The translations under genes were made by a program, and so were the position numbers. A stretch of 64,000 nt of DNA from Patescibacteria group bacterium (GTDB taxonomy: Bacteria > Patescibacteriota > Patescibacteriia > Patescibacteriales > UBA12465). The notes beneath the pieces are model-generated. The model did not search any database and was not told where the DNA came from. It saw nothing but the letters and a program-made list of their open reading frames with translations. The stretch lies in NCBI GenBank assembly GCA_041664445.1, contig JBAYKT010000003.1, positions 6,282 to 70,281 on the forward strand, in the 5' to 3' direction. This document shows positions 24,464-49,805 of the stretch, piece after piece (position 1 is the first letter of the stretch; each line of letters opens with the position of its first letter).

Positions 24464-25318
24464 TTATATCCTAAAAAAGGCTCTAGCGGTCGCGGTGGTA
24501 ATTTCGGCGACTTTTTCTAATTTTATGCCCTTAATTTCCGCTATTCTAGCGGCGACATATTGGACTAAAACCGGCTCATTTCTCTGGCCCCGATAAGGTT
24601 CTGGGGTCATATATGGTGTATCTGTTTCGACCATTATCTTCTCCAGCGGCGTTTTTCTGATTAAATTGTCCCATTGTTGACTAAAGGTAATAAGCCCCGT
24701 AAAGGAGATAATTAAGCCAAGATTAAAGTATTTCCAGGCTAAATCTTCATCACCAGAGAAACAATGGATAACTCCCCAGGGGCGATCGGTTGGCAATAAA
24801 TGACCGTATTCCTTTTTAAAATCTTGTAAAATTTCCAATAAATCGTCATGCGCTTGCCGACAATGAATAATCACTGGCAAATCTAAATTTTGTGCCAAAA
24901 CTAATTGTTGGGCAAAAACTTCTTGTTGTTTCTTCTTTATCGCCGTTATATCTTGGGTAGGGTCTAAATGATAATAATCGAGGCCAATTTCGCCAATAGC
25001 AACCACTTTTTCAAATTTAGCCAGCTTTTCATAACTACCATAGTTAAACTCTTCGGCTCGCGGCGTAAAACTATATTCGCCATTTTCGTCGTCATCATTT
25101 TCAATTAAACCTTCTTGCAAATGAACCGGATGCAAACCGATGGCGGCATAAACGCCCTTTTCATACTTATTAGCATAGTTCAAAGCACGGTTAGAGGTTT
25201 TAAATTCTGAGCCAACCAAAACCATCCAAGTCTCGTTGTCCAAAGACCGGCGAATAACCGCATCTGCATCATCTCTGAAGGCGGCAAAATTAACATGAGC
25301 ATGGGTGTCAATAATCAT
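24464..25318 (-). CDS. tatD: TatD-family metal-dependent hydrolase/DNase
   Basis: MIIDTHAHVNF start (ATG 25318; the ORF track allows 25336), GEIGLDY, VIIHCR, ETDTPY. Confidence 0.85.
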   Translation of the reverse strand: MIIDTHAHVNFAAFRDDADAVIRRSLDNETWMVLVGSEFKTSNRALNYANKYEKGVYAAIGLHPVHLQEGLIENDDDENGEYSFTPRAEEFNYGSYEKLAKFEKVVAIGEIGLDYYHLDPTQDITAIKKKQQEVFAQQLVLAQNLDLPVIIHCRQAHDDLLEILQDFKKEYGHLLPTDRPWGVIHCFSGDEDLAWKYFNLGLIISFTGLITFSQQWDNLIRKTPLEKIMVETDTPYMTPEPYRGQRNEPVLVQYVAARIAEIKGIKLEKVAEITTATARAFFRI

Positions 25319-25384
25319 AAATCCTCTTAAAATCAAGTAAAAAACGCGAAAAATCGCGCTTTTTAACTTTTAAACCTAAAAATT

Positions 25385-25594
25385 TTATTCTGTTTTTGGA
25401 GCTTCGTTGTTGTTGGCAGCAGGAGCTTCCGGGCTAGAAACCGGGGCTTCAGGAGCAGACATTGGAGCCGTAGCTTCCTCACTCTTCTCTTCTTCGTGAT
25501 TATGGCAACAATCTTCACCTTTGTGACAGCAATCTTCACCTTTATGGCAGCAACAATCTTTAGCGCCAAAAAGTTTCTTAAACCAATTACTCAT
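25385..25594 (-). CDS. 69-aa Cys/His-repeat protein (putative metal-binding), unknown family
   Basis: MSNWFKKLFGAK-DCCCHKGEDCCHKGEDCCHNHEEE, then an acidic Pro/Ala tail. Encoded by a 21-nt tandem repeat (25509-25529 and 25530-25550). Has its own promoter-like element upstream. Confidence 0.55.
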   Translation of the reverse strand: MSNWFKKLFGAKDCCCHKGEDCCHKGEDCCHNHEEEKSEEATAPMSAPEAPVSSPEAPAANNNEAPKTE

Positions 25595-25626
25595 AGTTTT
25601 GTTTGGTTAAAATAATAAACACTCTT

Positions 25627-25654
25627 ATTTTAGCATTTTTAAGCTAAAAGTCAA
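25627..25654 (-). promoter_or_regulatory. Promoter-like element with embedded inverted repeat upstream of the Cys-rich ORF
   Basis: Minus strand TTGACT-N16-TAAAAT. The spacer contains TTAGC-N8-GCTAA (25630-25647). Confidence 0.4.
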
Positions 25655-25667
25655 TGAAATCAAGGTC

Positions 25668-26753
25668 TTAAATATCCAGCTCGTCTAGTAGATTTTTTTG
25701 TTTTCGGCTAAGGTTGGACGGTATTTTTACTATTATTTTAACAAAGTGGTCACCAATACCACGACTATGTAATTTTATAATTCCCTTTTCTTTTAACTTG
25801 AAAATAGTGCCCGATTGCGTGCCGGCAGGAATTTTTAGTTTTAATGGTCCATTTACCGTTTCAATATCAATTTTATCACCAATAATCGCCTGCTTAATAC
25901 TAATTGTTTCCTCAGTTTTAATATCATAGCCATCGCGAATAAATTTGGAATGTGTTGAAATTTTAACACGCAGATATAAATCGCCGGCCGGTGCTCCTTT
26001 CTGACCCGCCTCTCCCTGGCCGCTTAAGCGAATGGATTCACCATTATTAATACCGGCCGGAATTCTAACTTTTATTTTAACTTGTTCATGATGAACTCCG
26101 GAACCGCTGCATTGTGTACATTTTTGACTATAGAGCTGGCCTTCGCCCTCACAATGAGGACAGGCTGATTGAGTTTGAATATTTCCCAAAATTGTTCTTT
26201 GCAGACGAGCTATTTTACCGGTCCCACGGCAATTAGTACAGGTTTCAACTTTTGCTCCTGGTTCATAGCCTTGGCCATGACAGTGATTGCAAATAATATT
26301 TTTAGAAAAGCGAATTTCTTTTTCTAGACCAAAAACCGCCTCTTTAAAATCTAAATTTAAGTTTAATTCTAAGTCGCGGCCACGAGTCTGACGTTTAGCG
26401 CCGCCGCGCGAAGCACCACCGCCAAAACCAAAAATATCGCCGAAACCGCCGAACATCTCGCTTAAATCTTCAAAGTCCATATTAAAGCCGCCGCCATTTT
26501 GAAAACCGGAAAAGCCGCCATAATTGGCGCCACCGGCTTGGCCATTTTGAAAAGCGGAGCCAAATTGATCGTATTGTTTTCTTTTTTCAGGATTACCTAA
26601 AACTTGATAGGCCTCATTATACTCTTTAAATTTTTCGGCGTCCCCGCCTTTATCTGGATGATGCTCATGCGCTTTTTTACGAAAAGCGATTTTGATTTCA
26701 TCGGGACTGGCACTTTTGGAAACACCTAATATATCGTAATAATCTTTGGACAT
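25668..26753 (-). CDS. dnaJ: Chaperone DnaJ
   Basis: J domain with HPD, a Gly/Phe-rich region, and four CxxCxGxG zinc-finger repeats ([32 protein letters not shown]). Confidence 0.95.
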
Positions 26754-28831: not shown

Positions 28832-29260
28832 TTATTTTTTTGTTTGAATCTTGATAGATTTTGGTTTGACTTCGGCGGCCTTAGGAATATTAATCTTTAA
28901 GACACCACCCTCGTTAACAGCGCTAGCTTTATCGCCATCAACTTTGGTCGGCAAAGGAATGGAGCGATAAAAAGAGCCGCGGCGAATCTCTTGGCGATAA
29001 TAATTTTTATCTTCCACTTCGCTCTTTTTTTCACTTTCACCTTTGATACAGAGGACATTGTTTTCAATAGAGATATCAACCTTATCCGGATCGATTCCGG
29101 CCAGTTGTGTTTCAACAACAATATTATCCTGGTCCTCGTACATATCAACCGCCGGCGTAAAGCCGAATTGATTGCCGCGAACGGTCGGCAACATGGATTC
29201 AAAAGTCTTATCCATGTCGTCGAATTCTGAAAAGAATGGAGTCCATTTTATTAAAGACAT
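28832..29260 (-). CDS. Small heat-shock protein (Hsp20/alpha-crystallin)
   Basis: 142 aa. Alpha-crystallin domain pattern (PAVDMYEDQDNIVVETQLAGIDPDKVDISIENNVLCIKGE ... GVLKINIPK). Confidence 0.85.
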   Translation of the reverse strand: MSLIKWTPFFSEFDDMDKTFESMLPTVRGNQFGFTPAVDMYEDQDNIVVETQLAGIDPDKVDISIENNVLCIKGESEKKSEVEDKNYYRQEIRRGSFYRSIPLPTKVDGDKASAVNEGGVLKINIPKAAEVKPKSIKIQTKK

Positions 29261-29331: not shown

Positions 29332-29955
29332 TTATTTGACAATTACTTTGGCCGGTCTAATAACCCGACCGTTTAACATGTATCCCGGCATAACTTCTTT
29401 ATCAACCGTTTCCCCCGTGCCATCCATAGCCTCCATGGTATTATGATCAAACTTTTCACCAACAGTCTTAATTTCCATGACTCCTTTAGATTCCAAAACA
29501 TCCTTAAACTGTTTTAAAACATAACGCACGCCGACGGCCCAAGGGTTATCATTATCCTCTTCTTTTAGGCCCAATAAGGAAAGTTTGAGATGGTCATAAA
29601 CCGGCAAGATATCCTGTAAAAAGTCTTGAAGCGCATATTTTATGGAATCTACCTTGTCTTTAGCACTTTGTTTTAAAAGATTATGGTAATCGGCTAAAGC
29701 TCGCTTATACTGATGTTCTAGAGATTCTGGAGCATCGTCAGGAGCGGATAAAAATTCAAAACGCGCTTTTTTAACTCCCTTAATTTCAACTTCTTCCAAA
29801 AACATTTTTTTGGGACGAACCCAAATCTTAGATTCATTCTTAATGTCTTGATAAACAACTTGCTCCTCCTTAGTTTCTGAATTAAGTGCTTCGTTTAAAA
29901 TCCGATATTCGCTACCTTTATAGTGGCGATAAATTCCTTTTTTTAACTCTTCCAT
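29332..29955 (-). CDS. grpE: DUF1653 - GrpE fusion (nucleotide exchange factor with replaced N-terminus)
   Basis: N-terminal GIYRHYKGSEYRILNEALNSETKEEQVVYQDIKNESKIWVRPKKMFLEEVE fits DUF1653. C-terminal KRALADYHNL...VKQFKDVLESKGVMEIKTVGEKFDHNTMEAM...PGYMLNGRVIRPAKVIV is GrpE. Start at ATG 29955, 4 nt after the hrcA stop. Confidence 0.75.
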   Translation of the reverse strand: MEELKKGIYRHYKGSEYRILNEALNSETKEEQVVYQDIKNESKIWVRPKKMFLEEVEIKGVKKARFEFLSAPDDAPESLEHQYKRALADYHNLLKQSAKDKVDSIKYALQDFLQDILPVYDHLKLSLLGLKEEDNDNPWAVGVRYVLKQFKDVLESKGVMEIKTVGEKFDHNTMEAMDGTGETVDKEVMPGYMLNGRVIRPAKVIVK

Positions 29956-29959
29956 ATTT

Positions 29960-30652
29960 TTATTCAAATTTCTTTTTAATAAATTCCGCGAGTGCCAAAT
30001 TATGGCCATAGTCCATGCGCATCGGTCCTAAAATTCCAAATAAGCCGTGAGCGCCTTCGTGTCGGTATTTAACTAAGATAGCACTTAAGAAATTGCCAAA
30101 GGGATTTTTCGAACCGATTAAAGCTTGGCTGCCTTCCGGCAATTCCTCAAAAATATCATCAATTATTTCTTCCATGCGATCAATAATTCCCGAAACATCA
30201 CAAACGGCATCAACCTGTTTAAACTCCGGCTGGGAAAATAAATTAGAGAGGCCGGTATAATATAAATCATTTTTATTGAAGGCCCAAAAAACTGCGCCAC
30301 TCGCTAATTCTGAAATCGCTTTAGCGGTTTGCCGTAAGGCCGCGCCCTCTTTACTAAAAATGTCTTCTAAATTTTTTTCATCTACCTCTTTAAGACTGCG
30401 CTTTTTTTTAACGTCTCTAATCGTTTCCAGAAGTAGCTCATAAGCAATTTCGGTCGGTACACGTCCAGCAGAAGTATGCGGCTGATAAATATAACCCTCT
30501 TCTTCAAGTTCCATCATTTCGTTGCGCACAGTGGCCGGTGAAATATCTAATTTATACTTATCAACCAGAACGCCAGAAGATACCGGCTGGGCCGTCTTCA
30601 CATATTCCTTAATTATGGTTTCTAAAATAAATTGTTTGCGCTCGGAAATCAT
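29960..30652 (-). CDS. hrcA: Heat-inducible transcription repressor HrcA (short form)
   Basis: ILETIIKEYVKTAQPVSSGVL...SPATVRNEMMELEEEGYIYQPHTSAGRVPT winged-helix N-terminus. About 230 aa against roughly 340 usual. Start set at MISERKQ (30652). A perfect CIRCE lies upstream. Confidence 0.85.
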   Translation of the reverse strand: MISERKQFILETIIKEYVKTAQPVSSGVLVDKYKLDISPATVRNEMMELEEEGYIYQPHTSAGRVPTEIAYELLLETIRDVKKKRSLKEVDEKNLEDIFSKEGAALRQTAKAISELASGAVFWAFNKNDLYYTGLSNLFSQPEFKQVDAVCDVSGIIDRMEEIIDDIFEELPEGSQALIGSKNPFGNFLSAILVKYRHEGAHGLFGILGPMRMDYGHNLALAEFIKKKFE

Positions 30653-30671
30653 ATATTTTATTGCTAACGCT

Positions 30672-30711
30672 ATTATAAACAAAATTAGCACTCAAGTCAA
30701 TAGAGTGCTAA
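30672..30711 (-). promoter_or_regulatory. CIRCE operator overlapping a consensus-like promoter
   Basis: Perfect CIRCE TTAGCACTC-N9-GAGTGCTAA at 30685-30711. Minus-strand TTGACT (30695-30700, inside the CIRCE spacer)-N17-TATAAT (30672-30677). Confidence 0.9.
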
Positions 30712-30738
30712 TTATTAACAAAAATTAACTAATAAAAG

Positions 30739-31230
30739 CTAAATTCCTAGTTCCTGTTTGTAGTCAAGATTCTGCTGATAATCGGCCGGACTTAAGAGCT
30801 CCGGGGCAGAAAAGTGATGCCGCGCGCGGTAAGTAATAGAATAATATTGTAAATTGTATCCGTTAATAACAACATCCGTAATTAAATGGACCAAGCCGGC
30901 GAAAGCGAGCGTCAAAAAAATCATCTTTAAAATCTGTTTTTGTCGGCATATCCAAGCGATTAGCAATAACAGAGGGAAATATTCCCAAGCATGAAAAAAT
31001 ATTCTTATTTTGCCGCTCAACAGAAACTGTCGACTTTGAATAAAATAAGTAAAATTAAAATGTGGTCCATAAAAAAAGAAATATTCTAAAACATGATCAA
31101 GATCAATTAAAAAACCACCCAAAATTCCGAGAGCGATTCCCAGCCACAGACGCTTAAAACGACGGCCGAAATAATAGCCGACTAAAACCGCTAACGAAAA
31201 ATGAATAAATAAATGTATTGTTAAGGGCAT
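30739..31230 (-). CDS. Membrane protein, DUF457/YdjM-like putative metal-dependent hydrolase
   Basis: 163 aa, 4-5 TM, His-rich ends (HLFIHFS, DLDHV, HLITD). Weak family call. Confidence 0.4.
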   Translation of the reverse strand: MPLTIHLFIHFSLAVLVGYYFGRRFKRLWLGIALGILGGFLIDLDHVLEYFFFYGPHFNFTYFIQSRQFLLSGKIRIFFHAWEYFPLLLLIAWICRQKQILKMIFLTLAFAGLVHLITDVVINGYNLQYYSITYRARHHFSAPELLSPADYQQNLDYKQELGI

Positions 31231-39459: not shown

Positions 39460-39906
39460 TTACCTTTTTTCTTCTTCAAGAAGCACATTAATTCCCGGCT
39501 TGAGGCACTTGAGCGTTTCTTTAGAAATCTCACCAAATGTGGATTCACTCAAATACCGCGATTTCAGTTTTCCGTCTTTCATAAAATACACAAAAGCAGT
39601 TTTGCCTTTAATGATGTAGGCTAAAGCGGCATGTTTGATAATGCCATCTTTCATAATGCAAATGCCGTCAGAGATTGATACGGGAAGACAATTTTTCAAA
39701 CTCATTTCAAAATAGGTTAGCTCCTTCTGCGGCAACATGTCGCTAATTGAATTAGCATCCAAGACATCCTCATTGGTAAACACCGACAATTCTCCTGCAT
39801 TAAATAAATACACCTTATCAGCTGTTCTCATGTTTGATTTACTGCAAGAAGAAGAAAAAAGAGTTGAAAAAAATACAACAATTAATTGAGCGATTTTTGT
39901 TTTCAT
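39460..39906 (-). CDS. Orphan secreted/lipoprotein-like protein
   Basis: Signal peptide MKTKIAQLIVVFFSTLFSSSC with a Cys at the likely cleavage site; no recognisable domain. Has its own promoter, operator-like palindrome and terminator. Confidence 0.5.
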   Translation of the reverse strand: MKTKIAQLIVVFFSTLFSSSCSKSNMRTADKVYLFNAGELSVFTNEDVLDANSISDMLPQKELTYFEMSLKNCLPVSISDGICIMKDGIIKHAALAYIIKGKTAFVYFMKDGKLKSRYLSESTFGEISKETLKCLKPGINVLLEEEKR

Positions 39907-39953: not shown

Positions 39954-40004
39954 AATGCTATTTTAGCATTAAGAAATTATATCATATTATTATGCTTTTG
40001 TCAA
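39954..40004 (-). promoter_or_regulatory. Consensus sigma70 promoter plus palindromic operator for the lipoprotein gene
   Basis: Minus strand TTGACA (39999-40004)-N17-TATAAT (39976-39981). Perfect 7-3-7 palindrome AATGCTA-ttt-TAGCATT at 39954-39970, over the predicted +1. Confidence 0.65.
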
Positions 40005-40073: not shown

Positions 40074-41273
40074 TTAAATTTGCATATTCTCCACCACAAA
40101 ATCAACATCCTTATCCCCTCGACCAGAAAGATTAACGATAATTGTCTTGTCTGAGTCTAGCTTAGCGGCTAATTTAAGGGCGTAAGCGACAGCATGAGCA
40201 CTTTCTAGGGCCGGAATTATGCCTTCAGTTCGAGAAAGCTCTAAAAAGGCAGCTAAGGCCTCATGGTCATTAATCGTCTCATAGACAACCCGTCCTTTAT
40301 CTTTTAAGTCGGCATGCACCGGACCGACACCTGGGTAATCAAGCCCAGAAGCAATGGAGTGCACCGGCAAAGGCGCTCCCTGTTCATCTTGCAATAAGTA
40401 AGTGAACATTCCGTGGATGTTTCCCGGTTTACCCAAAGTTAAGGTTGCGGCATGTTCGCCTAAGCCAAAACCGCGACCGGCCGGCTCCACGCCAATCATC
40501 TTAACTTCCTCATCTCCTAAAAATTCGTGAAATAAACCAATAGCATTAGAACCGCCGCCCACACAAGCCACTAAATAATCCGGCAAGCGATTTTCCTTCA
40601 CCATTATCTGTTCTTTTGCCTCTCGGCCGACCACTGACTGAAAATCGCGCACCATCATCGGAAAAGGATGTGGTCCGACTACCGAGCCAATGCCAAAAAA
40701 AGTGTCTTGCGGATTTTTGACAAAGGCTTCAAAGGCACTATCCACTGCATCCTTCAAACAGCGGCCGCCAGCTTTAACAGTCACCACTTTGGCTCCCAAT
40801 ATTTTCATCCGAGCAACATTCGGCGCTTGTTTTAAAATATCGATCTCTCCCATATGGATTTCGCATTCCAGCCCTACTAGAGCGGCGGCGGTCGCTAAAG
40901 CAACACCGTGTTGACCCGCGCCCGTTTCTGCTAACAATTTCTTCTTACCTAATCTTTTAGCAAGCAAAGCTTCTCCCAGAGTGTGATTTATTTTATGCGC
41001 TCCGGTATGGTTTAAATCTTCACGCTTCAAATAAATCTTGGCGCCGCCGATTTTAACCGTTAAATTCTTTGCTAAGTATAAAGGCGAGGGGCGGCCAACA
41101 TAATCCCTAAGCAAAGCTTGATATTCCTCTTGAAACTTTGGGTCTTCTTTGGCTAACGAATATTCTTTTTCAACCGCTTCAAAAATTGAGACCAACTCCG
41201 GCGGAATTTGACGGCCACCATAAACGCCGAAATACCCTAATTCATTTGGTAATGATTTTAAATTATTTTTCAT
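40074..41273 (-). CDS. trpB: Tryptophan synthase beta chain (stand-alone)
   Basis: [29 protein letters not shown] (PLP lysine), GGGSNAIG. 399 aa. No other trp gene in the window. Confidence 0.92.
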
Positions 41274-41402
41274 ATTATTTTTTTAGTTATTTTTTAATTA
41301 ATCTTTTTTAACAAATTTAACAAACAAAAAAGCGCCGCCAACTAAAAGTGCATTTATGTAAAAAATAATATTTTAACTGCTGATAATTCATATTAAACAA
41401 AT

Positions 41403-41439
41403 AAAAAACCGCCCAAGATCTAAAGAGATATCGGGCGGC
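41403..41439 (-). terminator. Strong rho-independent terminator (end of suf transcript and/or trpB attenuator)
   Basis: Minus strand CCGCCCGAUAUCU-cuuu-AGAUCUUGGGCGG, about 12 bp with one mismatch, followed by UUUUUU. Confidence 0.8.
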
Positions 41440-41465
41440 TGACTTATAATATATAACAAAATTGC

Positions 41466-41528
41466 CTACCCTCTATCTGGGGCGGCTTGCCAGGAAATAT
41501 TCAAATTTCTTAACTTATTAATTCTCAT
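41466..41528 (-). CDS. Candidate 20-aa leader peptide with a Trp codon
   Basis: ATG 41528, MRINKLRNLNISWQAAPDRG, TAG at 41466-41468. The UGG codon is at 41490-41492. The stop codon lies inside a segment that can pair with the 5' arm of the terminator. Hypothetical. Confidence 0.25.
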   Translation of the reverse strand: MRINKLRNLNISWQAAPDRG

Positions 41529-41534
41529 ACTTCT

Positions 41535-41563
41535 ATACTAAATCAATTAGCAAATATTTACAA
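41535..41563 (-). promoter_or_regulatory. Promoter-like element immediately upstream of the leader ORF
   Basis: Minus strand TTGTAA-N17-TAGTAT. The -10 ends 6 nt before the leader ATG, which implies a leaderless or near-leaderless transcript. Confidence 0.3.
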
Positions 41564-41571
41564 GTTGACGA

Positions 41572-41946
41572 TTATTTAGACCTTGCCGAGTCGCTAAGCG
41601 CTTTTTGAACGGCGCGCAAACCCAACATCGCGCAATTATATCGGCGGGCACTGATTTCTACGCCAAAAATATTTTTAATATCTTCAAAATTATAAACTAA
41701 AATTTGTTTCTTAGTTTTACCAATTAATTCTTCACTTAAAATAGAGATTCCGGCTTGCGAAATTGCACAGCCCTGGCCGGTGAAACTTAAGGCCTTTAAT
41801 TTATTGCCGGCAAACTTTAAAAAAACGGTAATGTCATCGCCACAAGTCGCATTTAATTCTTGCTGTTTAAAATCAGCCCCCGCCAAGGCGCCAAAATTAC
41901 GCGGATGCTTATAATGATCAATAATATTTTGCGCGTAGATATCCAT
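41572..41946 (-). CDS. sufU: Fe-S cluster scaffold SufU/IscU-like
   Basis: HYKHPRNFG, ATCGDD, GQGCAIS, RYNCAMLG: the three conserved Cys of the SufU/IscU fold. Confidence 0.8.
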   Translation of the reverse strand: MDIYAQNIIDHYKHPRNFGALAGADFKQQELNATCGDDITVFLKFAGNKLKALSFTGQGCAISQAGISILSEELIGKTKKQILVYNFEDIKNIFGVEISARRYNCAMLGLRAVQKALSDSARSK

Positions 41947-41947
41947 A

Positions 41948-43153
41948 TTATTTAAAGGCCCTGATTAATTCCTGCAAACGGGAAATAAAATAATCAATCT
42001 CGCCCTTGGTATTATAAAAACTAAGACTGGCGCGCAAAGTTGCTGGTGCGCCAAGATAATCATGCAAAGGTTGAGCGCAATGATGGCCGGCGCGTAAAAT
42101 AATCCCAGCCTGCCCTAAAATATCCGCCGCGTCATGTGGATGGACGCCCTTAATTGTAAGCGCAAAAATTGGTAATTTAGCTTTAGCCGTTCCTAAAATT
42201 TTTACCGCTGTTAGCTTTTTGATTTTCTGTAAAAAATAAGTGGTTAATTGTTGTTCTTGGATTTCAATATTATGATGGCCGACGCCCTCCAAATATTTTA
42301 TTGCCGCTCCTAAACCAATTACACCGGCAATATTCGGCGTTCCCGCTTCAAATTTATAAGGGAGCTCATTCACACCGAAAGAATCAGTATCCACAAAACT
42401 AATCATATCGCCGCCGCCCATAAATGGCGGCATTGCTAATAATAATTCTTGGCGTCCGTATAAGACACCGATACCTGTAGGCCCGCCAAGCTTATGACCG
42501 GAAAATACTAAAAAATCGCAACCCAGCCGTTTAACATCAATCTTTAAATGGGCCACGCTCTGGGCAGCATCTATCAAAGTAACAATGCCTTTTTGTTTTG
42601 CCAGCTTAATCAACTGAGATGCAGGATTAATTATACCCAAGACATTAGAGACTTGGGAAATGGCCAATAGTTTAACGCGACGCTTATTTAATAATTTTTT
42701 AGCCGCTACCAAATCCCAAGAACCGTCAGCCTTAAGCGGAATATATTCTAACTTAATACCAATCTTTTCTTGGAGTTGCAGCCACGGCACAATATTGGCA
42801 TGATGCTCGGCGATGCTTAAAACCACAATATCGCCAGCCTGTAAATTAGCTTCTCCCCAAGAGCGGGCGACTAAATTAATACCGGCGGTCGCTCCCGAAG
42901 TAAAAATAATTTCCTCTTTTTGGGCGCCAATAAAATCCGCGACCAAACTTCGAGCAACTTCATATTTTTTAGTCGCTGCGTCGGCTAGCGGATTTAAGCC
43001 ACGATGAACGTTAGCGTTATCATTCTTATAAAAATTACTGATAGCCTCAATAACTGAGCGTGATTTTTGTGCAGTTGAGGCATTATCAAAATAAACCAAA
43101 GACTGGTCCTTAATTTTTTTATTTAAAATGGGGAAATCATTTCTCCTAATCAT
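41948..43153 (-). CDS. sufS: Cysteine desulfurase SufS
   Basis: SGHKLGGPTGIGVLYG (PLP Lys) and RAGHHCAQPL (catalytic Cys). 401 aa. Confidence 0.88.
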   Translation of the reverse strand: MIRRNDFPILNKKIKDQSLVYFDNASTAQKSRSVIEAISNFYKNDNANVHRGLNPLADAATKKYEVARSLVADFIGAQKEEIIFTSGATAGINLVARSWGEANLQAGDIVVLSIAEHHANIVPWLQLQEKIGIKLEYIPLKADGSWDLVAAKKLLNKRRVKLLAISQVSNVLGIINPASQLIKLAKQKGIVTLIDAAQSVAHLKIDVKRLGCDFLVFSGHKLGGPTGIGVLYGRQELLLAMPPFMGGGDMISFVDTDSFGVNELPYKFEAGTPNIAGVIGLGAAIKYLEGVGHHNIEIQEQQLTTYFLQKIKKLTAVKILGTAKAKLPIFALTIKGVHPHDAADILGQAGIILRAGHHCAQPLHDYLGAPATLRASLSFYNTKGEIDYFISRLQELIRAFK

Positions 43154-43155
43154 AA

Positions 43156-43926
43156 TTATTTAGTGCGGTTCTTTTTCTTAATTTCCGCGGCAATCTCTTT
43201 TTTAAACTTGGCCGGCAATCCTTCCGTAAAACGAGCGGTTAATGAATTAATAATAAGCTCGCGTGCTTGCTTTTCGGTAAGTCCGCGGCTTTGCAAATAA
43301 AAAATATCTTCTGGTGATAATTGAAAAGTGCTAGCCCCATGGCCGGCCTTAACTTCATTAGCATCAATTTTCAAGCCCGGGAGCATCACCCCCTTCGCCG
43401 TCCGGCTCATTAGATAAAGTTTCATATCAATGCGCGAATCCGTCTGTTGCGCCAGCGGGTCAATTATAATATTGGAATAATATTTAGCTATCGCTTCCGC
43501 GTTTAAAAGGCCGATAACCGAAAAGCGTCCGCGTGTTCCCGGTTTCGTAAAAATATAATCATCGCTGGCGACAAAAGCTTCTTTACCGGAAAAATAAAAT
43601 AAGACTCGACTCTCAAAGTCCGCGCCTTTCCCTAAGCGGTTAACAAATTTAGAATCGTTATCACTGGAATTAAAATAAGCGCGATAAGAAACGACCTGCG
43701 ACTTATCACCAATAATCAATTCTCGATTTTGCGACGCGGGTAAAGCATTTATCGAGGCCAAAAAAATATATTTAATCTGGCAATTGCGCCCGATAATAAT
43801 TTGAATATTTTTTTCCGCCTTCTTAGCAGTACTGCTCTTTACGGGCGACTTATCAATAATAAAAGCTTCCGTACCATCAGGGATTATAATTTTTTTCTGG
43901 CGGTTAGTAATAATTATTTCTTTCAT
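43156..43926 (-). CDS. sufD: Fe-S assembly protein SufD (short)
   Basis: The C-terminal beta-helix region VKAGHGASTFQLSPEDIFYLQSRGL parallels SufB/D. Position between sufB and sufS. Confidence 0.7.
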   Translation of the reverse strand: MKEIIITNRQKKIIIPDGTEAFIIDKSPVKSSTAKKAEKNIQIIIGRNCQIKYIFLASINALPASQNRELIIGDKSQVVSYRAYFNSSDNDSKFVNRLGKGADFESRVLFYFSGKEAFVASDDYIFTKPGTRGRFSVIGLLNAEAIAKYYSNIIIDPLAQQTDSRIDMKLYLMSRTAKGVMLPGLKIDANEVKAGHGASTFQLSPEDIFYLQSRGLTEKQARELIINSLTARFTEGLPAKFKKEIAAEIKKKNRTK

Positions 43927-43931
43927 AATAT

Positions 43932-45371
43932 TTAACCGACGCTATTTTCCATTTCTAGCTCCACCATCCGATTCATTTCTACTGCATATTCTAGAGGTAA
44001 TTCTTTAACGATGGGATTTATAAAACCGTTAACAATCATGGCGCTCGCCTCGCTCTCGCTTAAGCCGCGACTGCGTAAATAAAAAATATCGTCATCATTC
44101 AATTTGCCGGCGGTCGCTTCATGCGCCAATACTGCCGTTGGATTATTAATTTTAATCATCGGAATGGTATCGGAAGCCGATCGCGGATCTAAAATTAAAG
44201 CATCGCATTTAATATTGGAAACAGCATCTTCGGCGGCGGCGCTAATTTCCACTAAACCGCGATAAACGGCGCGTCCCCCGTCCTTGCTAATACTCTTCAT
44301 CACAATATTGGAGGTGGTTTTTGGCGCTAAATGGATTACCTTCGCGCCCGTGTCTTGAATCTGGCCATGATTGGCAAAAGCGACGCCTAAATGATCGGCA
44401 CTCGCGCCCTCCCCCAACAAGACGGAACAAGGATAAAGCATCGTCACATTACTACCAAAATTACCGCCCACCCATTCCATATGCGCGCCCTCTTGAACTA
44501 AGGCTCTTTTAGTATTTAAATTGTAAGCATCTTTACTCCAGCTTTCCACGCTGCTATAGCGGAAGCGCGCTTTCTTGGCAACATAAACCTCCACACAACC
44601 GGCATGTAAAGAATCAACGCCATAACGCGGGGCGCTACAGCCTTCAATATAATGCGCTTGCGCTTCTTCTTCCACGATTATTAAAGTATGTTCAAACTGC
44701 CCCATACCCTTGGCATTCATCCGAAAATAAGCCTGCAAAGGCAAATCAACTTTTACACCCTTAGGAATATATAAAAAAGTACCGCCGCTCCAAACCGCGC
44801 CATGAAGCGCCGCAAATTTATGGAGAGTTGGTGGGACCGCGCGCATAAAATGTTTTTTAACTAATTCTTCATGCGTCTGCAAAGCGACATCTAAGTCTTC
44901 AAAAACTACTCCCTGGCTGCGAAATTGCTCTTTTAAACTATGATAAATAACGGTTGATTCGTATTGTGCACCGACACCGGCCAGGACTTCTTGTTCGGCC
45001 TGCGGAATGCCAAGTTTATCAAAAGTTTCCTTAATATCTGCTGGCACATCATCCCAAGTTTGCGATTGCTTATCGGTCGCTCGAGCATAATAAGTTATCT
45101 TTCCCAAATCTAAACGCGACAAATCAGGTCCCCAAGTCGGCAAAGGCATTTCCTGATATAGCTTCAAAGACGCTAAACGTTTTTGCAGCATCCACTCCGG
45201 TTCCTGTTTTTCTTGAGAAATAAAACGCACTAGCTTTTCATCCAAACCAACCTTGGTGCCGGACATGTATTCAGATTGATTATAAGAATCCCACAACGAA
45301 TCATGAGAGCTAGCCGTCGCTTTCTTTTTAGGAAGATTTTTCTTTTTTAGCGCTTCTCTCGGCATTCTCAT
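43932..45371 (-). CDS. sufB: Fe-S assembly protein SufB
   Basis: Highly conserved SufB sequence (FEHTLIIVEE, HEATAGKLNDDDIFYLRSRGL). ATGA overlap with sufC. Confidence 0.92.
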   Translation of the reverse strand: MRMPREALKKKNLPKKKATASSHDSLWDSYNQSEYMSGTKVGLDEKLVRFISQEKQEPEWMLQKRLASLKLYQEMPLPTWGPDLSRLDLGKITYYARATDKQSQTWDDVPADIKETFDKLGIPQAEQEVLAGVGAQYESTVIYHSLKEQFRSQGVVFEDLDVALQTHEELVKKHFMRAVPPTLHKFAALHGAVWSGGTFLYIPKGVKVDLPLQAYFRMNAKGMGQFEHTLIIVEEEAQAHYIEGCSAPRYGVDSLHAGCVEVYVAKKARFRYSSVESWSKDAYNLNTKRALVQEGAHMEWVGGNFGSNVTMLYPCSVLLGEGASADHLGVAFANHGQIQDTGAKVIHLAPKTTSNIVMKSISKDGGRAVYRGLVEISAAAEDAVSNIKCDALILDPRSASDTIPMIKINNPTAVLAHEATAGKLNDDDIFYLRSRGLSESEASAMIVNGFINPIVKELPLEYAVEMNRMVELEMENSVG

Positions 45372-46111
45372 AAAACTTTTTTAAAGCCTGATTTTTCTAA
45401 ACGCTTAGCTAATTCCGGTCCGCCGCTGGCGGCAACCTTTCCCTGCTTCATAACAATTACCTTATCCGGCTTAATATATTTTAAAATGCGTAAATAATGA
45501 GTGACAATCATCGCGCTTGTATCTTTGGTTTTAAATCTAGCCATTGCCTGACCAACAACTTTCAGGGCATCAACATCCAAGCCGGAATCAATCTCATCAA
45601 ACACTGCCAGTGTTGGTGCCGCTAGCGCTAATTGCAACATTTCGGCTTTTTTCTTTTCCCCGCCGGAGAATCCCTGATTAAGATACCGCTTGCTCCAATC
45701 GTCTTTAATCTGGAGTTGAGCAACTTCGGCGTCTAATTTCTTTTTAAAATTAAAAACGCTGGGCGCGGTCTTCCCGCGTGCCGAAATTAATGACTTGTGA
45801 AAATCAAAAAGAAAAGGATAAAAATCTAAACCGGCAATTTCCCGCGGCTGTTGCCAAGCTAAAAATATTCCTAAAGCCGCCCGTTCTTCCGGTTTCAAAT
45901 CAACAATGTTTTTACCTTTAAAAATAATTTGGCCAGATTCAATCTGATAAGCGGGATGACCCATAAGTACATTAGACATTGTGCTTTTGCCGGAACCATT
46001 CGGTCCCATAATAACAACCGTTTCTCCTTTTTTAATAGTGAAACTAACGTCATTTAAAATAATCTTACCATCGACAGAAACGTGTAAATTTTTAACAGTT
46101 AATAAATTCAT
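45368..46111 (-). CDS. sufC: Fe-S assembly ATPase SufC
   Basis: Walker A GPNGSGKST, signature FSGGEKKK, Walker B LAVFDEIDSGLD. Confidence 0.92.
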   Translation of the reverse strand: MNLLTVKNLHVSVDGKIILNDVSFTIKKGETVVIMGPNGSGKSTMSNVLMGHPAYQIESGQIIFKGKNIVDLKPEERAALGIFLAWQQPREIAGLDFYPFLFDFHKSLISARGKTAPSVFNFKKKLDAEVAQLQIKDDWSKRYLNQGFSGGEKKKAEMLQLALAAPTLAVFDEIDSGLDVDALKVVGQAMARFKTKDTSAMIVTHYLRILKYIKPDKVIVMKQGKVAASGGPELAKRLEKSGFKKVL

Positions 46112-46512
46112 AATTTTTTTCCCACAAGAGAAGCTAGACTTCTTTTGTTTAAAGCTGATTTAATATCGTCTAAGACGATGTCCCAAGGACCGCGCGCCTT
46201 ACAATCTTTAGCGTTCGGGCATTTACCGTTTAGAGAAATACAACGACGTTGGATATTTCCTTCGAGCGCCTCAAAAATAGCTAACAAAGAAATTTTGCTA
46301 GCCGGCTTGGCTAGTGTATAGCCGCCCTTAGTCCCTTCCCGGCTTTTAATAAGTCCGGCTTTAGTTAGAGGCTGAGAAATCTGAATTAGATATGCTGAAG
46401 TGACCTTAAGCCGCTTGGCTAGGCCGGTTAAAGACAATGGCGAATTATCATTAGCCGCTAATTCCAACATGATAATTAAGCCGTAATCAACGCGAGTTTT
46501 AATTTGAAACAT
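46108..46512 (-). CDS. Rrf2-family (IscR/SufR-like) transcriptional regulator
   Basis: N-terminal wHTH (DYGLIIMLELA...SLTGLAKRLKVTSAYLIQISQPL) and a three-Cys cluster, C-x6-C-x5-C (RRCISLNGKCPNAKDC). ATGA overlap with sufC. Confidence 0.8.
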   Translation of the reverse strand: MFQIKTRVDYGLIIMLELAANDNSPLSLTGLAKRLKVTSAYLIQISQPLTKAGLIKSREGTKGGYTLAKPASKISLLAIFEALEGNIQRRCISLNGKCPNAKDCKARGPWDIVLDDIKSALNKRSLASLVGKKL

Positions 46513-47237: not shown

Positions 47238-49805
47238 TTAATAATCCAAAAATTTTTTAAAGATATAGCCTTTTAATTTTTGCGTAAAAATTAAATAAAC
47301 ACCGACAAGCAAGCCAATTGTTAACATTACCTTATAATTAGGCGCCACAAAACCAAAATATGAAGCAAACGGCGTAAATGGCAATACCCAGCCAATAGTC
47401 AAAATTACTAAAATTGAAATAAGCACATAACGGCTAGGGCGACTTTGCAAAAATGGGATTTTTTTTGTCCGAATAACAAAAATAACTAAAATTTGTGTAG
47501 CCAAAGATTCCAAGAACCAACCGGTTTGAAACTGGCTCTCATTAAGTTTAAACACAAAAAATAAAATAATAAAAGTCAGAATATCAAAAACGGAACTTAT
47601 CGGCCCTAAAAAGATCATCAAGTTTCTAATATTTTTAGTATTCCAATGATGAGGCTTGGCAATCATCTCCTGATCAACGTTATCGGTTGGAATCGTGGTC
47701 TGGGAAAAATCATACAAAAAATTGTTCAACAAAAGCTGGAGCGGCGTCATTGGTAAAAATGGCAGTAAGAAAGAAGCGGCGGCTACAGAAAACATATTAC
47801 CGAAGTTAGAGCTTAAGCCCATTAAAATATATTTCAAGGTATTAGCGAAAGTTTTGCGGCCACTATCAACCCCTAGAGATAAAACCGATAAATCATTAGT
47901 TAGCAAAATAAGATCGGCCGACTCCTTGGCTACATCAACCCCATTATTGACCGAGATGCCAACATCAGCCGCTTTCAAAGGCAAGGCGTCATTAATGCCA
48001 TCTCCTAAATAGCCAACAACGTCGCCGCCCGCCCTTAAAGCTTTAATAATTTTTTCTTTTTGCTGGGGTGAGGTGCGATAAAAAATTGAAACATCCTTAA
48101 CTTTAAGCGCTAATTCTTCCTGACTTAATTTTTCAACTTCCTCACCACTCAAAAAACCTTTAATCGGCAGTTCGACTTCTTGGCAAATTTTTCTAATTAC
48201 TAAATCATTATCGCCACTGATAATTTTAACCTCAACCCCTTGGCAATTTAAATCCTTAAGTGCTTTAGCAACCGCTTTTTTAGGTGGATCAAAAAAAGCA
48301 ATAAACCCGCTTAGCACCATATCATTTTCAAAATCGTTTGCACGTGCTAAAATATCTTTTTTCTCTTTACTTATTTCTTCTTTGCCCACCGAAATTTCTT
48401 TATAGGCGATTGCCAACACTCTAAACCCGTCGCGGCTCAAACTCTGATATTCATCAAGTGCCTGCTTCTTAGCAGCCGCAGAAAATTCTTTAACTTTTCC
48501 ATCTTGGCTGTATTTTTTACAAAGACTAAATACTGATTCCGGCGCTCCCTTGCTAATAATAAAAAACTTAGTGGCTGTTTTTTTTGGCTGTAAAACAACG
48601 GCGAGGCGTCGACGATTAAAATCAAAGGGGATTTCGCCTATCTTATTATAACTGTCAGTTGTCAAAGCAATTTTTATTTTTAAGACCGCCTCATCTAGAG
48701 GATTAACCAATCCGCTTTGAAAAAAACTATTTAAATAAGCCTGTTCTAAAACCGTTTCGCTTTCCTTCCCAAAAATATCGACATTCTTAACTAATTCTAT
48801 TTCATTCTCAGTGAGCGTTCCCGTTTTATCGGTACATAAAATATTCATCGCGCCAAAACTATGAATAGCATTTAAGCGTTTAACAATGACTCCGTGCTTG
48901 GACATGCTTAATGATCCCTTGGCAAGCGTAATGGAAACAATCATCGGTAGTAGCTCTGGAGTCAAACCGACAGCTAGGGCCAAAGAAAACAGCAGAGAGT
49001 TATACCAATCAAATCCATTAAACACGGTGTTAAGGAAAAAAATCAAAATTACCAAAATCAAAATGGTTTGGCTGACCATAATACTAAAACTCTTGATTCC
49101 TTTTTCGAATTCCGTCGGAGATTCAGTTAAAGAGAGGTTGGCGGCAATCTGACCAAAGTCAGTTTTGGCGCCAGTGCGCACAACCAGGGCCGTGCCATAA
49201 CCGCTAACAATATTAGTGCCAGCAAATAAAATATTTTCTTTATTTTTAGAAGCACTGGCTGTTTTAGCAACCGGGAAAGATTCTCCCGTTAACGAAGATT
49301 CGTTGGTAAATAAACTATGCTCTTCAATTAAGCGACAATCGGCCGGAATAATTGAGCCAACGTTTAAAGAAATAAAATCTCCTGGGACTAGTTCAGCAGA
49401 TTTTAAAAACTGTTTTTGCCCGTCACGCCAGACTTCAATTTTTACTACTACTTTTTCCTGCAATTTTGCCGCGGCTTTAGCGGATTTATATTCTTGAACA
49501 AAATCTAAAAGAATACTCAAAAAAATCATGATGTAAATTACTATCGCCGAACGCCGGTCATGAAATAGCAAAGACAGGGAGCCGGCAACTATCAGAATCA
49601 AAATCACTGGACTTAAAAATTTGTTCAATAAATTACGCAGAGCTTGATGTTTTTTTTCTAAAACTAATTGATTGGCGCCAAAACGCTCCCGTCTTAAATC
49701 TGCTTCCTTAGTACTCAGGCCTTTAGTGTTATTTCCTAAAGCCTGAAAAGCTTGCTTCGTGCCTAGAAGCGATATCTGATCTAATTCTGGCCAATCTTTT
49801 AACAT
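47238..49805 (-). CDS. mgtA: P-type ATPase, MgtA-type (Mg2+ importing) by overall similarity
   Basis: CTDKTGTLT phosphorylation site, GDGINDA hinge, TGES actuator motif. 855 aa with an MgtA-like N-terminus (GLSTKEADLRRERFGANQL). Confidence 0.7.
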   Translation of the reverse strand: MLKDWPELDQISLLGTKQAFQALGNNTKGLSTKEADLRRERFGANQLVLEKKHQALRNLLNKFLSPVILILIVAGSLSLLFHDRRSAIVIYIMIFLSILLDFVQEYKSAKAAAKLQEKVVVKIEVWRDGQKQFLKSAELVPGDFISLNVGSIIPADCRLIEEHSLFTNESSLTGESFPVAKTASASKNKENILFAGTNIVSGYGTALVVRTGAKTDFGQIAANLSLTESPTEFEKGIKSFSIMVSQTILILVILIFFLNTVFNGFDWYNSLLFSLALAVGLTPELLPMIVSITLAKGSLSMSKHGVIVKRLNAIHSFGAMNILCTDKTGTLTENEIELVKNVDIFGKESETVLEQAYLNSFFQSGLVNPLDEAVLKIKIALTTDSYNKIGEIPFDFNRRRLAVVLQPKKTATKFFIISKGAPESVFSLCKKYSQDGKVKEFSAAAKKQALDEYQSLSRDGFRVLAIAYKEISVGKEEISKEKKDILARANDFENDMVLSGFIAFFDPPKKAVAKALKDLNCQGVEVKIISGDNDLVIRKICQEVELPIKGFLSGEEVEKLSQEELALKVKDVSIFYRTSPQQKEKIIKALRAGGDVVGYLGDGINDALPLKAADVGISVNNGVDVAKESADLILLTNDLSVLSLGVDSGRKTFANTLKYILMGLSSNFGNMFSVAAASFLLPFLPMTPLQLLLNNFLYDFSQTTIPTDNVDQEMIAKPHHWNTKNIRNLMIFLGPISSVFDILTFIILFFVFKLNESQFQTGWFLESLATQILVIFVIRTKKIPFLQSRPSRYVLISILVILTIGWVLPFTPFASYFGFVAPNYKVMLTIGLLVGVYLIFTQKLKGYIFKKFLDY

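Follow-up and report, generated by a model that had tools for sequence, protein, structure and literature searches.

We describe a 69-amino-acid (aa) mini-protein encoded between dnaJ and tatD in a 64,000-nucleotide (nt) contig stretch from a Patescibacteria group bacterium (contig JBAYKT010000003.1; the whole stretch is called the window, and coordinates refer to it throughout). The mini-gene is real and under purifying selection; its architecture, the variation of its repeats, the conservation of its promoter and terminator, and its synteny are established in this analysis. It belongs to a family that is restricted to Candidatus Falkowbacteria and neighboring Patescibacteria, ultra-small groundwater bacteria, and whose members all bear the database name "hypothetical protein." At a probability of roughly 0.5, we propose that the product may act near the membrane as a thiolate metal-binding peptide, serving as a buffer or chaperone with a capacity that would be set by repeat number.

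Patescibacteria, or Candidate Phyla Radiation (CPR) bacteria, have tiny genomes with many conserved small genes to which no function has been assigned. The mini-gene is a case in point: it is clearly a real gene, its expression is probably high, and yet neither Pfam nor NCBIfam nor the literature searched contains it.

A conserved protein-coding mini-gene

The open reading frame (ORF) encodes MSNWFKKLFGAKDCCCHKGEDCCHKGEDCCHNHEEEKSEEATAPMSAPEAPVSSPEAPAANNNEAPKTE (translation of 25594..25385, minus strand), exactly the translation given in the initial annotation of this DNA, and the identical protein is also called on independent contigs. The 7 Cys and 4 His reported within about 20 residues are there as described, in residues 14 to 33, with Cys at positions 14, 15, 16, 22, 23, 29, and 30 and His at positions 17, 24, 31, and 33. 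Across all six frames of the window, this is the one segment with at least 6 Cys in 25 residues. The 21-nt tandem repeat noted beneath this module was recovered by Tandem Repeats Finder; its two full units (25509-25529 and 25530-25550) are identical at 19 of 21 positions, and both differences are synonymous (TGC/TGT and CAT/CAC). The conserved C-terminal K-T-E is encoded at 25388-25396.

Frame 0 is the sole stop-free frame in all 19 distinct DNA versions of the gene, and the other five frames are interrupted. The initial annotation had raised an alternative frame (25363..25569) as the one that might turn out to be conserved; it is ruled out by stops in most relatives, while the proposed frame is conserved. 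Between the window and the closest genome (CP066698.1, locus L010), 15 synonymous and 10 nonsynonymous changes correspond to a ratio of nonsynonymous to synonymous rates (omega, or dN/dS) of ~0.11 by the Nei-Gojobori method, and by the same method the part spanning the N terminus and the cysteines has 10 synonymous versus 0 nonsynonymous changes. Residues 1 to 42, which hold the N-terminal motif and the di-Cys module, show no nonsynonymous change relative to either L010 or L011. Among close pairs, dN/dS for the mini-gene is ~0.07 to 0.2 (NG86); the tail evolves faster (0.2 to 0.6), under weaker constraint than the head. Every length difference among relatives is in-frame, including the clean loss of one 21-nt unit in L011. 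A conserved frame, a dN/dS of ~0.1, and the interruption of the alternative frame in relatives together identify this as a genuine protein-coding mini-gene.

Family members and variation in repeat number

A HMMER (phmmer) scan over 1.8 billion cluster representatives returned 14 genuine relatives of 48 to 101 aa, and profile searches together with contig scans extended the family to about 30 distinct proteins at 33 loci. The named records come from Candidatus Falkowbacteria, including the complete 977-kb chromosome CP066698.1, and from other "Patescibacteria group" metagenome-assembled genomes (MAGs). The eukaryotic CCCH zinc-finger repeat proteins P0011 and P0012 were set aside as compositional matches; the Cys/His spacing of the mini-protein is unlike C-x8-C-x5-C-x3-H. 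Three loci (L013, L015, and L016, on CAZAAD010000003.1, CAZZBQ010000004.1, and CAYUWA010000038.1) are titled "uncultured Gammaproteobacteria bacterium," yet they have a Patescibacteria-type dnaJ/mini-gene/tatD locus, and dnaK is also visible on the contigs of L013 and L015, which extend farther upstream. Compared with the window, their DnaK is about 92% and their TatD 82 to 89% identical, and the Gammaproteobacteria labels of these bins are probably wrong.

Alignments of the family reveal one invariant feature, the N-terminal consensus M-[SCG]-N-W-[FL]-x-K-[LI]-F-G-x-K. Each member has between 0 and 4 CC pairs, with at least one in 29 of 30 members: two pairs are most common (16/30), three are found in 6 members (including that of the window), four in a single member, and one in another 6. 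Total Cys per member varies from 0 to 9 and His from 0 to 6. Members with two pairs have the core CC-x2-G-x2-CC, which is nearly invariant among Falkowbacteria-type members. Deeper branches include CxCxC patterns such as CKCKCGEGDKNCEC, and a Cys-free lineage (L032, L033, and P0021) retains MSNWFKKLFGAK, the acidic tail, and a C-terminal EEKTE. Tails are acidic, rich in Pro, Ala, Ser, and Thr, and poorly conserved, with a K-[TVA]-E terminus (KTE, KVE, or KAE) in 22 of the 30 proteins.

The closest relative (L011, from Falkowbacteria S5_I03) has exactly one CCHKGED unit (7 aa, 21 nt) fewer than the window protein; repeat number therefore changes over short evolutionary distances. A check for repeat-number variation among relatives was accordingly positive, with 0 to 4 CC pairs that differ between close relatives, and expansions arose independently in several sub-lineages. 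The Cys/His repeat, which the initial annotation took as the defining trait, is thus present in the window protein but is not the invariant core of the family, given the one-CC, CxC-type, and Cys-free members.

Promoter, terminator, and linkage to tatD

The TTGACT-N16-TAAAAT element assigned earlier to the mini-gene proved to be a near-consensus promoter conserved across 21 loci. With its TG before the -10 hexamer, it has the top promoter-like score of the region (10/12), and the pattern TTGAC-N13-16-TGnTAnAAT occurs at 2 sites in the whole 64 kb, one of them this promoter, against 0.03 expected by chance. The -35 and extended -10 (TGCTAnAAT) elements are kept in 21 of 21 loci compared upstream of the gene (L029, L031, and the 19 distinct DNA versions), the Cys-free member among them. 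The mini-gene is probably strongly expressed.

The TTAGC-N8-GCTAA inverted repeat described in the promoter spacer does exist, but it is not conserved and is judged incidental. Its right arm is the extended -10 box TGCTAAAAT, making the repeat largely a by-product of the promoter, and about 0.8 occurrences of the loose pattern are expected per window by chance. The repeat is broken in L010, L011, L012, L009, L005, and L007; the closest genomes have TTCGC, and distant ones diverge further. Its identity with the controlling inverted repeat of chaperone expression (CIRCE) was also rejected, as the spacing is 8 versus 17 nt, the repeat is unconserved, and the chance expectation is that given above. 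No CIRCE was found near the mini-gene in any of the 33 loci. The sole CIRCE of the window lies upstream of hrcA, and it is conserved there in L005, L007, and L009, all three relatives with contigs reaching that far. In the window (region 30660..30740), the -35 hexamer TTGACT of hrcA sits inside the 9-nt CIRCE spacer, and HrcA binding would therefore directly occlude the promoter.

Downstream, the mini-gene is followed by an intrinsic terminator that was missing from the initial annotation. It consists of a 12-bp stem and a T-run (RNA fold of -17.2 kcal/mol, z = -3.0) and is kept in all loci examined, among them the Cys-free one; the stem of L015 has changed in a compensatory way. Across loci, tatD begins 20 to 35 nt past the terminator (gap at 25319..25337 in the window); since this is too close for a promoter of its own, tatD is probably expressed via read-through. 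The tatD start codon at 25318 is preceded by AGAGGA. TatD is unusually conserved (77 to 99% aa identity across loci where DnaJ is 68 to 94%), and the arrangement suggests an important gene whose expression relies on read-through of the terminator. In the CxC-type lineage (L028 2744-2871 and L030 2732-2924), ~80 extra nt separate the mini-gene stop from the terminator and hold a second GC-rich inverted repeat (GCCG…CGGC).

Pfam matches on contig L003, which is identical to the window, confirmed the placement of the mini-gene between dnaJ and tatD. The order continues beyond dnaJ with dnaK, hsp20, a DUF1653-GrpE fusion, hrcA, and the CIRCE, and beyond tatD with an atpI-led F-ATPase operon. Next after the mini-gene comes tatD in 32 of the 33 loci, the contig of L020 ending before tatD. 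In L024 dnaJ and the mini-gene are split by a membrane gene on the opposite strand, and in L028 the genes upstream are unrelated and dnaJ is not there; in both, the mini-gene and its terminator still lie directly in front of tatD. The description of this site as the tail of a heat-shock cluster therefore fits the position and does not establish membership in the regulon: the mini-gene has its own promoter without CIRCE, and its synteny follows tatD rather than dnaJ. A scan of the 73-nt gap between dnaJ and the mini-gene (25595-25667) found no terminator-like site, so that heat-shock read-through is possible, and the CIRCE/HrcA-controlled dnaK-dnaJ transcript may extend into the mini-gene.

An amphipathic N-terminal helix

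An AlphaFold2 run on the family alignment returned a helix at residues 4 to 9 as the sole regular element, the remainder being of low confidence. The hydrophobic moment of residues 1 to 11 (0.50) is the top value in the protein and is comparable with those of the MreB, Noc, and MinD peptides computed likewise. Both results support the short amphipathic helix that the initial annotation had suspected. The hydrophobic and basic faces are segregated, as they are in MinD- and Arf-type sequences: the membrane-targeting sequence of Escherichia coli MinD, KGFLKRLFGG, nearly matches the mini-protein core -FKKLFGAK- (PMC5471200), and the N-terminal membrane helices of Arf (MGSWLSKLLGKKE) and Arf6 (MGKVLSKIFGNKE) resemble the family variant MGNWFSKLFGAKE without gaps. 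The Arf N termini were retrieved with a chimeric query (the mini-protein N terminus joined to Arf6 residues 14 to 28), and their E-values are not evidence for the mini-protein. All three are helices of 10 to 12 residues with an aromatic/Leu face and a Lys face. They differ in setting: the MinD helix is C-terminal and ATP gated and the Arf helices are myristoylated and GTP gated, whereas the mini-protein helix is N-terminal, on a peptide without a nucleotide switch.

A candidate membrane-proximal metal-binding peptide

By sequence, the mini-protein is not a member of any described family. The window protein has no Pfam match at E ≤ 10 and no NCBIfam or PADLOC match; across all 30 members, Pfam and PADLOC scans gave nothing meaningful, and no metallothionein family appeared at E ≤ 1. 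Nothing on the peptide motifs or on Cys-rich small proteins of Patescibacteria was found in the literature searched. The bacterial metallothioneins (SmtA/BmtA; Pfam Metallothio_Pro, PF02069) are likewise small Cys/His cytoplasmic peptides, proposed to buffer Zn, Cd, or Cu. SmtA, however, arranges CxC and CxxC motifs (Cys9His2) in a zinc-finger-like fold and has neither an amphipathic head nor an acidic tail; the window protein does not match the PF02069 profile, and hhalign gave a probability of 0.3% against SmtA. The earlier statements that no family could be named and that the SmtA/BmtA pattern was not recognizable thus hold. By function, we infer that the mini-protein belongs with the small Cys-rich metal-binding peptides, among which the combination of an amphipathic head, a slippage-tuned di-Cys cassette, and an acidic K-T-E tail is unusual.

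The di-Cys motifs of HMA4/HMA2, HspA, and Hpn make a metallothionein-like metal or redox role appear the most plausible chemistry. The di-Cys motifs of HMA4 confer nanomolar affinity for Zn2+, and in HMA2 six such motifs bind three Zn2+ (PMC6255694). These plant Zn/Cd P1B-ATPases, like the mini-protein, place CC dipeptides amid Asp, Glu, and His in a disordered, membrane-proximal cytosolic segment; they bind about one Zn per two CC pairs, and CC number differs between close species, as it does in the mini-protein family. The HMA extensions are nevertheless part of a large eukaryotic transporter, run to hundreds of residues with irregular spacing, and have no homology to the mini-protein, which stands alone at 69 aa, has a regular CC-x5-CC period, and brings its own amphipathic anchor at the N terminus.

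A second precedent is tied to heat-shock machinery, as the mini-gene is by position. Domain B of Helicobacter pylori HspA, a Ni-binding segment on a heat-shock protein, contains CC(94,95)HTG and CC(111,112)HDH (PMC5116745), a local match of CCHTG and CCHDH to the CCHKG and CCHNH of the mini-protein. Together with Hpn and Hpn-2, it represents short metal-binding segments of Cys, His, and acidic residues, and -CC- motifs are retained in the Hpn of every gastric Helicobacter (PMC4671568); the window protein has three CC pairs. HspA domain B, on the other hand, is fused to GroES and has 8 His and a 15-residue gap between its CC pairs, the Hpn proteins are His dominated, and both HspA and Hpn are NikR regulated in a nickel-dependent pathogen. 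The mini-protein is free-standing, contains 6% His, begins with a helix, and belongs to an unrelated phylum, so that the two are alike in composition and not by homology.

Membrane docking and metal binding are inferences, and so are the identity of the metal and any role in stress. The N-terminal helix, in which W4, F5, L8, and F9 face one way and K6, K7, and K12 the other, would attach a small cytoplasmic peptide to the membrane's inner face or to a membrane complex. Right after the helix, CC-x2-G-x2-CC could place four thiolates around a Gly turn, enough for a single tetrathiolate site that would accept a soft or borderline metal (Zn2+, Ni2+, Cu+, or Cd2+), for which nearby His, Asp, and Glu could serve as auxiliary ligands. 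Each added 21-nt repeat would contribute one more CC pair, and replication slippage could in this way shift binding capacity. The acidic, disordered tail would keep the mini-protein soluble, and the terminal K-T-E may contact a partner. Expression would be driven by the near-consensus promoter, perhaps with an addition from dnaK-dnaJ read-through, and most transcripts would end at the hairpin before tatD.

Several observations weigh against this proposal. The Cys-free lineage and the single-CC members keep the termini, promoter, terminator, and position, and metal binding therefore cannot be the only function of the family. His is scarce (4 of 69 residues), unlike in Ni-storage proteins, and the very high His content with HxH or HHH motifs is absent. 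The hydrophobic moment of residues 1 to 11 is exceeded by 6% of shuffles of the same residues. The AlphaFold2 model is of low confidence (predicted local distance difference test [pLDDT] score of 55.6), too low for a fold search to be meaningful. No metal transporter or metal-responsive regulator adjoins the mini-gene, and the metal-related genes that the window holds (a SUF cluster, a PALP enzyme, and a P-type ATPase) are 15 to 24 kb off.

It is conceivable, though in our estimation improbable, that the family is at root an undescribed Patescibacteria-specific scaffold, in which the N-terminal helix and K-T-E dock a flexible acidic peptide at the membrane or a membrane complex and the di-Cys cassette has been repeatedly gained, expanded by 21-nt slippage, remodeled to CxC, or lost. 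Given the unbroken linkage, TatD or the neighboring F-ATPase would be possible partners. Such a scaffold would amount to a minimal, evolvable, membrane-tethered metallochaperone or metal sensor outside the known metallothionein and metallochaperone families.

If the di-Cys module does bind metal, the mini-protein would represent a new class of bacterial metal-binding peptide, one that is minimal, carries its own membrane anchor, and has its capacity tuned by repeat slippage. It would inform the metal economy of ultra-small, host-dependent bacteria and could offer a compact metal-binding tag. Natural variants with 0, 1, 2, 3, and 4 CC pairs, which share a scaffold that is otherwise constant, form a built-in structure-function series. 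The proposed chemistry is conventional, and no long-standing open question is addressed.

Alternative explanations

The main rival to metal binding is a tether or adaptor, since the Cys-free and single-CC members show that metal binding is not the whole story. Here the N-terminal helix would dock on a membrane or complex, the C-terminal K-T-E would bind a partner, and a flexible spacer would connect the two, the Cys module being an optional accessory of particular lineages that might serve, for example, as a switch making the tether responsive to metal or redox state. Nothing but the N-terminal motif is invariant, KTE-type C termini recur in 22 of 30 members while Cys varies from 0 to 9, and the Cys-free member retains the promoter, terminator, and position. 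A search of PDB profiles gave ApcG (Sll1873) as its best match, which is not statistically significant (E = 2.8). ApcG has a similar layout, in that a long disordered linker rich in Pro, Ala, and Glu comes after the N terminus MLKKLFGAKKE, and contact with a membrane complex (photosystem II at the thylakoid membrane; bioRxiv 10.1101/2023.05.22.541798) is made by its N-terminal region; it differs in lacking a Cys module, in its C-terminal phycobilisome-binding domain, and in phylum and context. What makes this explanation doubtful is that CC-x2-G-x2-CC in Falkowbacteria-type members is as constrained as the N terminus (0 nonsynonymous versus 4 to 10 synonymous changes); it is therefore no neutral spacer in these members.

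Unlikely, too, is a thiol redox buffer or switch, in which paired cysteines would cycle between dithiol and disulfide to scavenge oxidants or report oxidative or heat stress. This assumes an organism with few low-molecular-weight thiols. Seven Cys in 17 residues and the consecutive disulfides of HspA domain B (C94-C111 and C95-C112; PMC5116745) provide chemical precedent, and the gene adjoins a chaperone operon with which it could be cotranscribed, dnaJ having no terminator after it. A stoichiometric peptide without a dedicated reductase, however, would make a poor redox buffer, and the mini-gene promoter has no stress operator. A 5-residue spacing that spans a conserved Gly and is flanked by His, Asp, and Glu is what one would more typically see in a metal site, and the Cys-free and single-CC members tell against a redox role as well.

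A regulatory leader peptide, in which the ORF and hairpin would act as an attenuator and let Cys/His supply control read-through into tatD, and possibly into the atp operon, is very improbable. It would account for the reliance of tatD on read-through, with ~20 to 35 nt after the terminator leaving no room for its own promoter, and for a mini-gene/tatD linkage that never breaks. But more than 130 nt separate the Cys/His codons from the hairpin downstream, the distance from stop to stem is variable (15 to 25 nt, and about 80 nt in L028 and L030), and folding of 25325-25400 gives the terminator only, with no competing antiterminator. Cys-free members share the same layout, and purifying selection acts on the whole N-terminal amino acid sequence, not on codon identity.

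Still more improbable is the precursor of a modified or secreted Cys-rich peptide, such as a ribosomally synthesized and posttranslationally modified peptide (RiPP) or a bacteriocin, to which a small Cys-rich ORF with a conserved "leader-like" N-terminal part and a variable remainder might point. No radical-SAM enzyme, lanthipeptide synthetase, cyclodehydratase, peptidase-transporter, or immunity gene is present within 8 kb on each side in L005, L007, and L009, where the genes encode only PBP2, HrcA, GrpE, Hsp20, DnaK, DnaJ, TatD, and ATP synthase subunits. The ORF lacks a signal peptide, its place between housekeeping genes is fixed, and the conserved part is an amphipathic helix without a known leader motif.

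Finally, a chance ORF or noncoding RNA, conserved as DNA or RNA and not as protein, could be argued from an ATG without a Shine-Dalgarno sequence and from the low-complexity, repeat-derived composition, but the frame and substitution data already effectively refute it: per site, synonymous changes far exceed nonsynonymous ones, indels are all in-frame, the other five frames carry stops, the dnaK of the window lacks a Shine-Dalgarno sequence too, and an Rfam scan for an RNA element gave weak, terminator-like matches below threshold and nothing else.

Feature coordinates and neighboring genes

Table 1. Features of the mini-gene locus and its surroundings in the window
Feature	Position	Strand	Basis and remarks
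tatD, 284 aa	24464..25318	-	Pfam TatD_DNase on contig L003 (100% identical to window); ATG at 25318 is the true start
Intrinsic terminator hairpin (A-tract, CGCG-core stem, T-tract)	25338..25365	-	Scan; between mini-gene and tatD
Mini-protein coding sequence, 69 aa	25385..25594	-	ORF list; stop codon 25385-25387
Acidic Pro/Ala/Ser-rich tail, residues 34-69	25388..25495	-	Predicted disordered (low pLDDT, no secondary structure)
Di-Cys (CC-x5-CC) module CCCHKGED-CCHKGED-CCHNH, residues 14-33	25496..25555	-	Sequence; 7 Cys, 4 His
21-nt tandem repeat, 2.6 copies	25500..25553		Tandem Repeats Finder; underlies di-Cys module
N-terminal amphipathic motif MSNWFKKLFGAK, residues 1-12	25559..25594	-	Family alignments; invariant
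Sigma-70-type promoter TTGACT-N16-TAAAAT, extended -10 TGCTAAAAT	25627..25654	-	Promoter scan
Inverted repeat TTAGC-N8-GCTAA in promoter spacer	25630..25647		Pattern scan; judged incidental
dnaJ	25668..26753	-	Pfam DnaJ, DnaJ_C, and DnaJ_CXXCXGXG on contig L003 (100% identical to window)
CIRCE operator TTAGCACTC-N9-GAGTGCTAA, perfect	30685..30711		Heads hrcA-grpE-hsp20-dnaK-dnaJ; context only

The chaperone cluster itself has several unusual traits. GrpE (29332..30009, minus strand) has a DUF1653 domain at its N terminus; this co-chaperone fusion is unusual, but the clade conserves it, and in L005 (3355-4383) the same DUF1653-GrpE gene additionally has a NUDIX domain. The hsp20 gene (28832..29260, minus strand) is inserted between grpE and dnaK in the hrcA-grpE-dnaK-dnaJ cluster and is followed by a GC-rich hairpin (TCGACCC...GGGTCGA) without a T-run. 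Between PBP2 and hrcA lies an ORF for a 163-aa multi-pass membrane protein (30739..31230, minus strand) with no Pfam match, which is syntenic and identical in length in L005, L007, and L009.

Farther away, a gene for a PALP-family (cysteine-synthase-like) enzyme is followed by a complete SUF cluster for Fe-S assembly (40074..46512, minus strand), comprising an Rrf2 regulator, SufC, SufB, SufD, SufS, and SufU, and a type-II-like P-type cation ATPase is encoded at 47238..49805. The other near-consensus extended -10 promoter of the window (39976..40004, minus strand) lies ahead of an ORF at 39460..39906 on the same strand, whose 148-aa product has no Pfam match and begins with a lipoprotein-like signal sequence (…LFSSSC).

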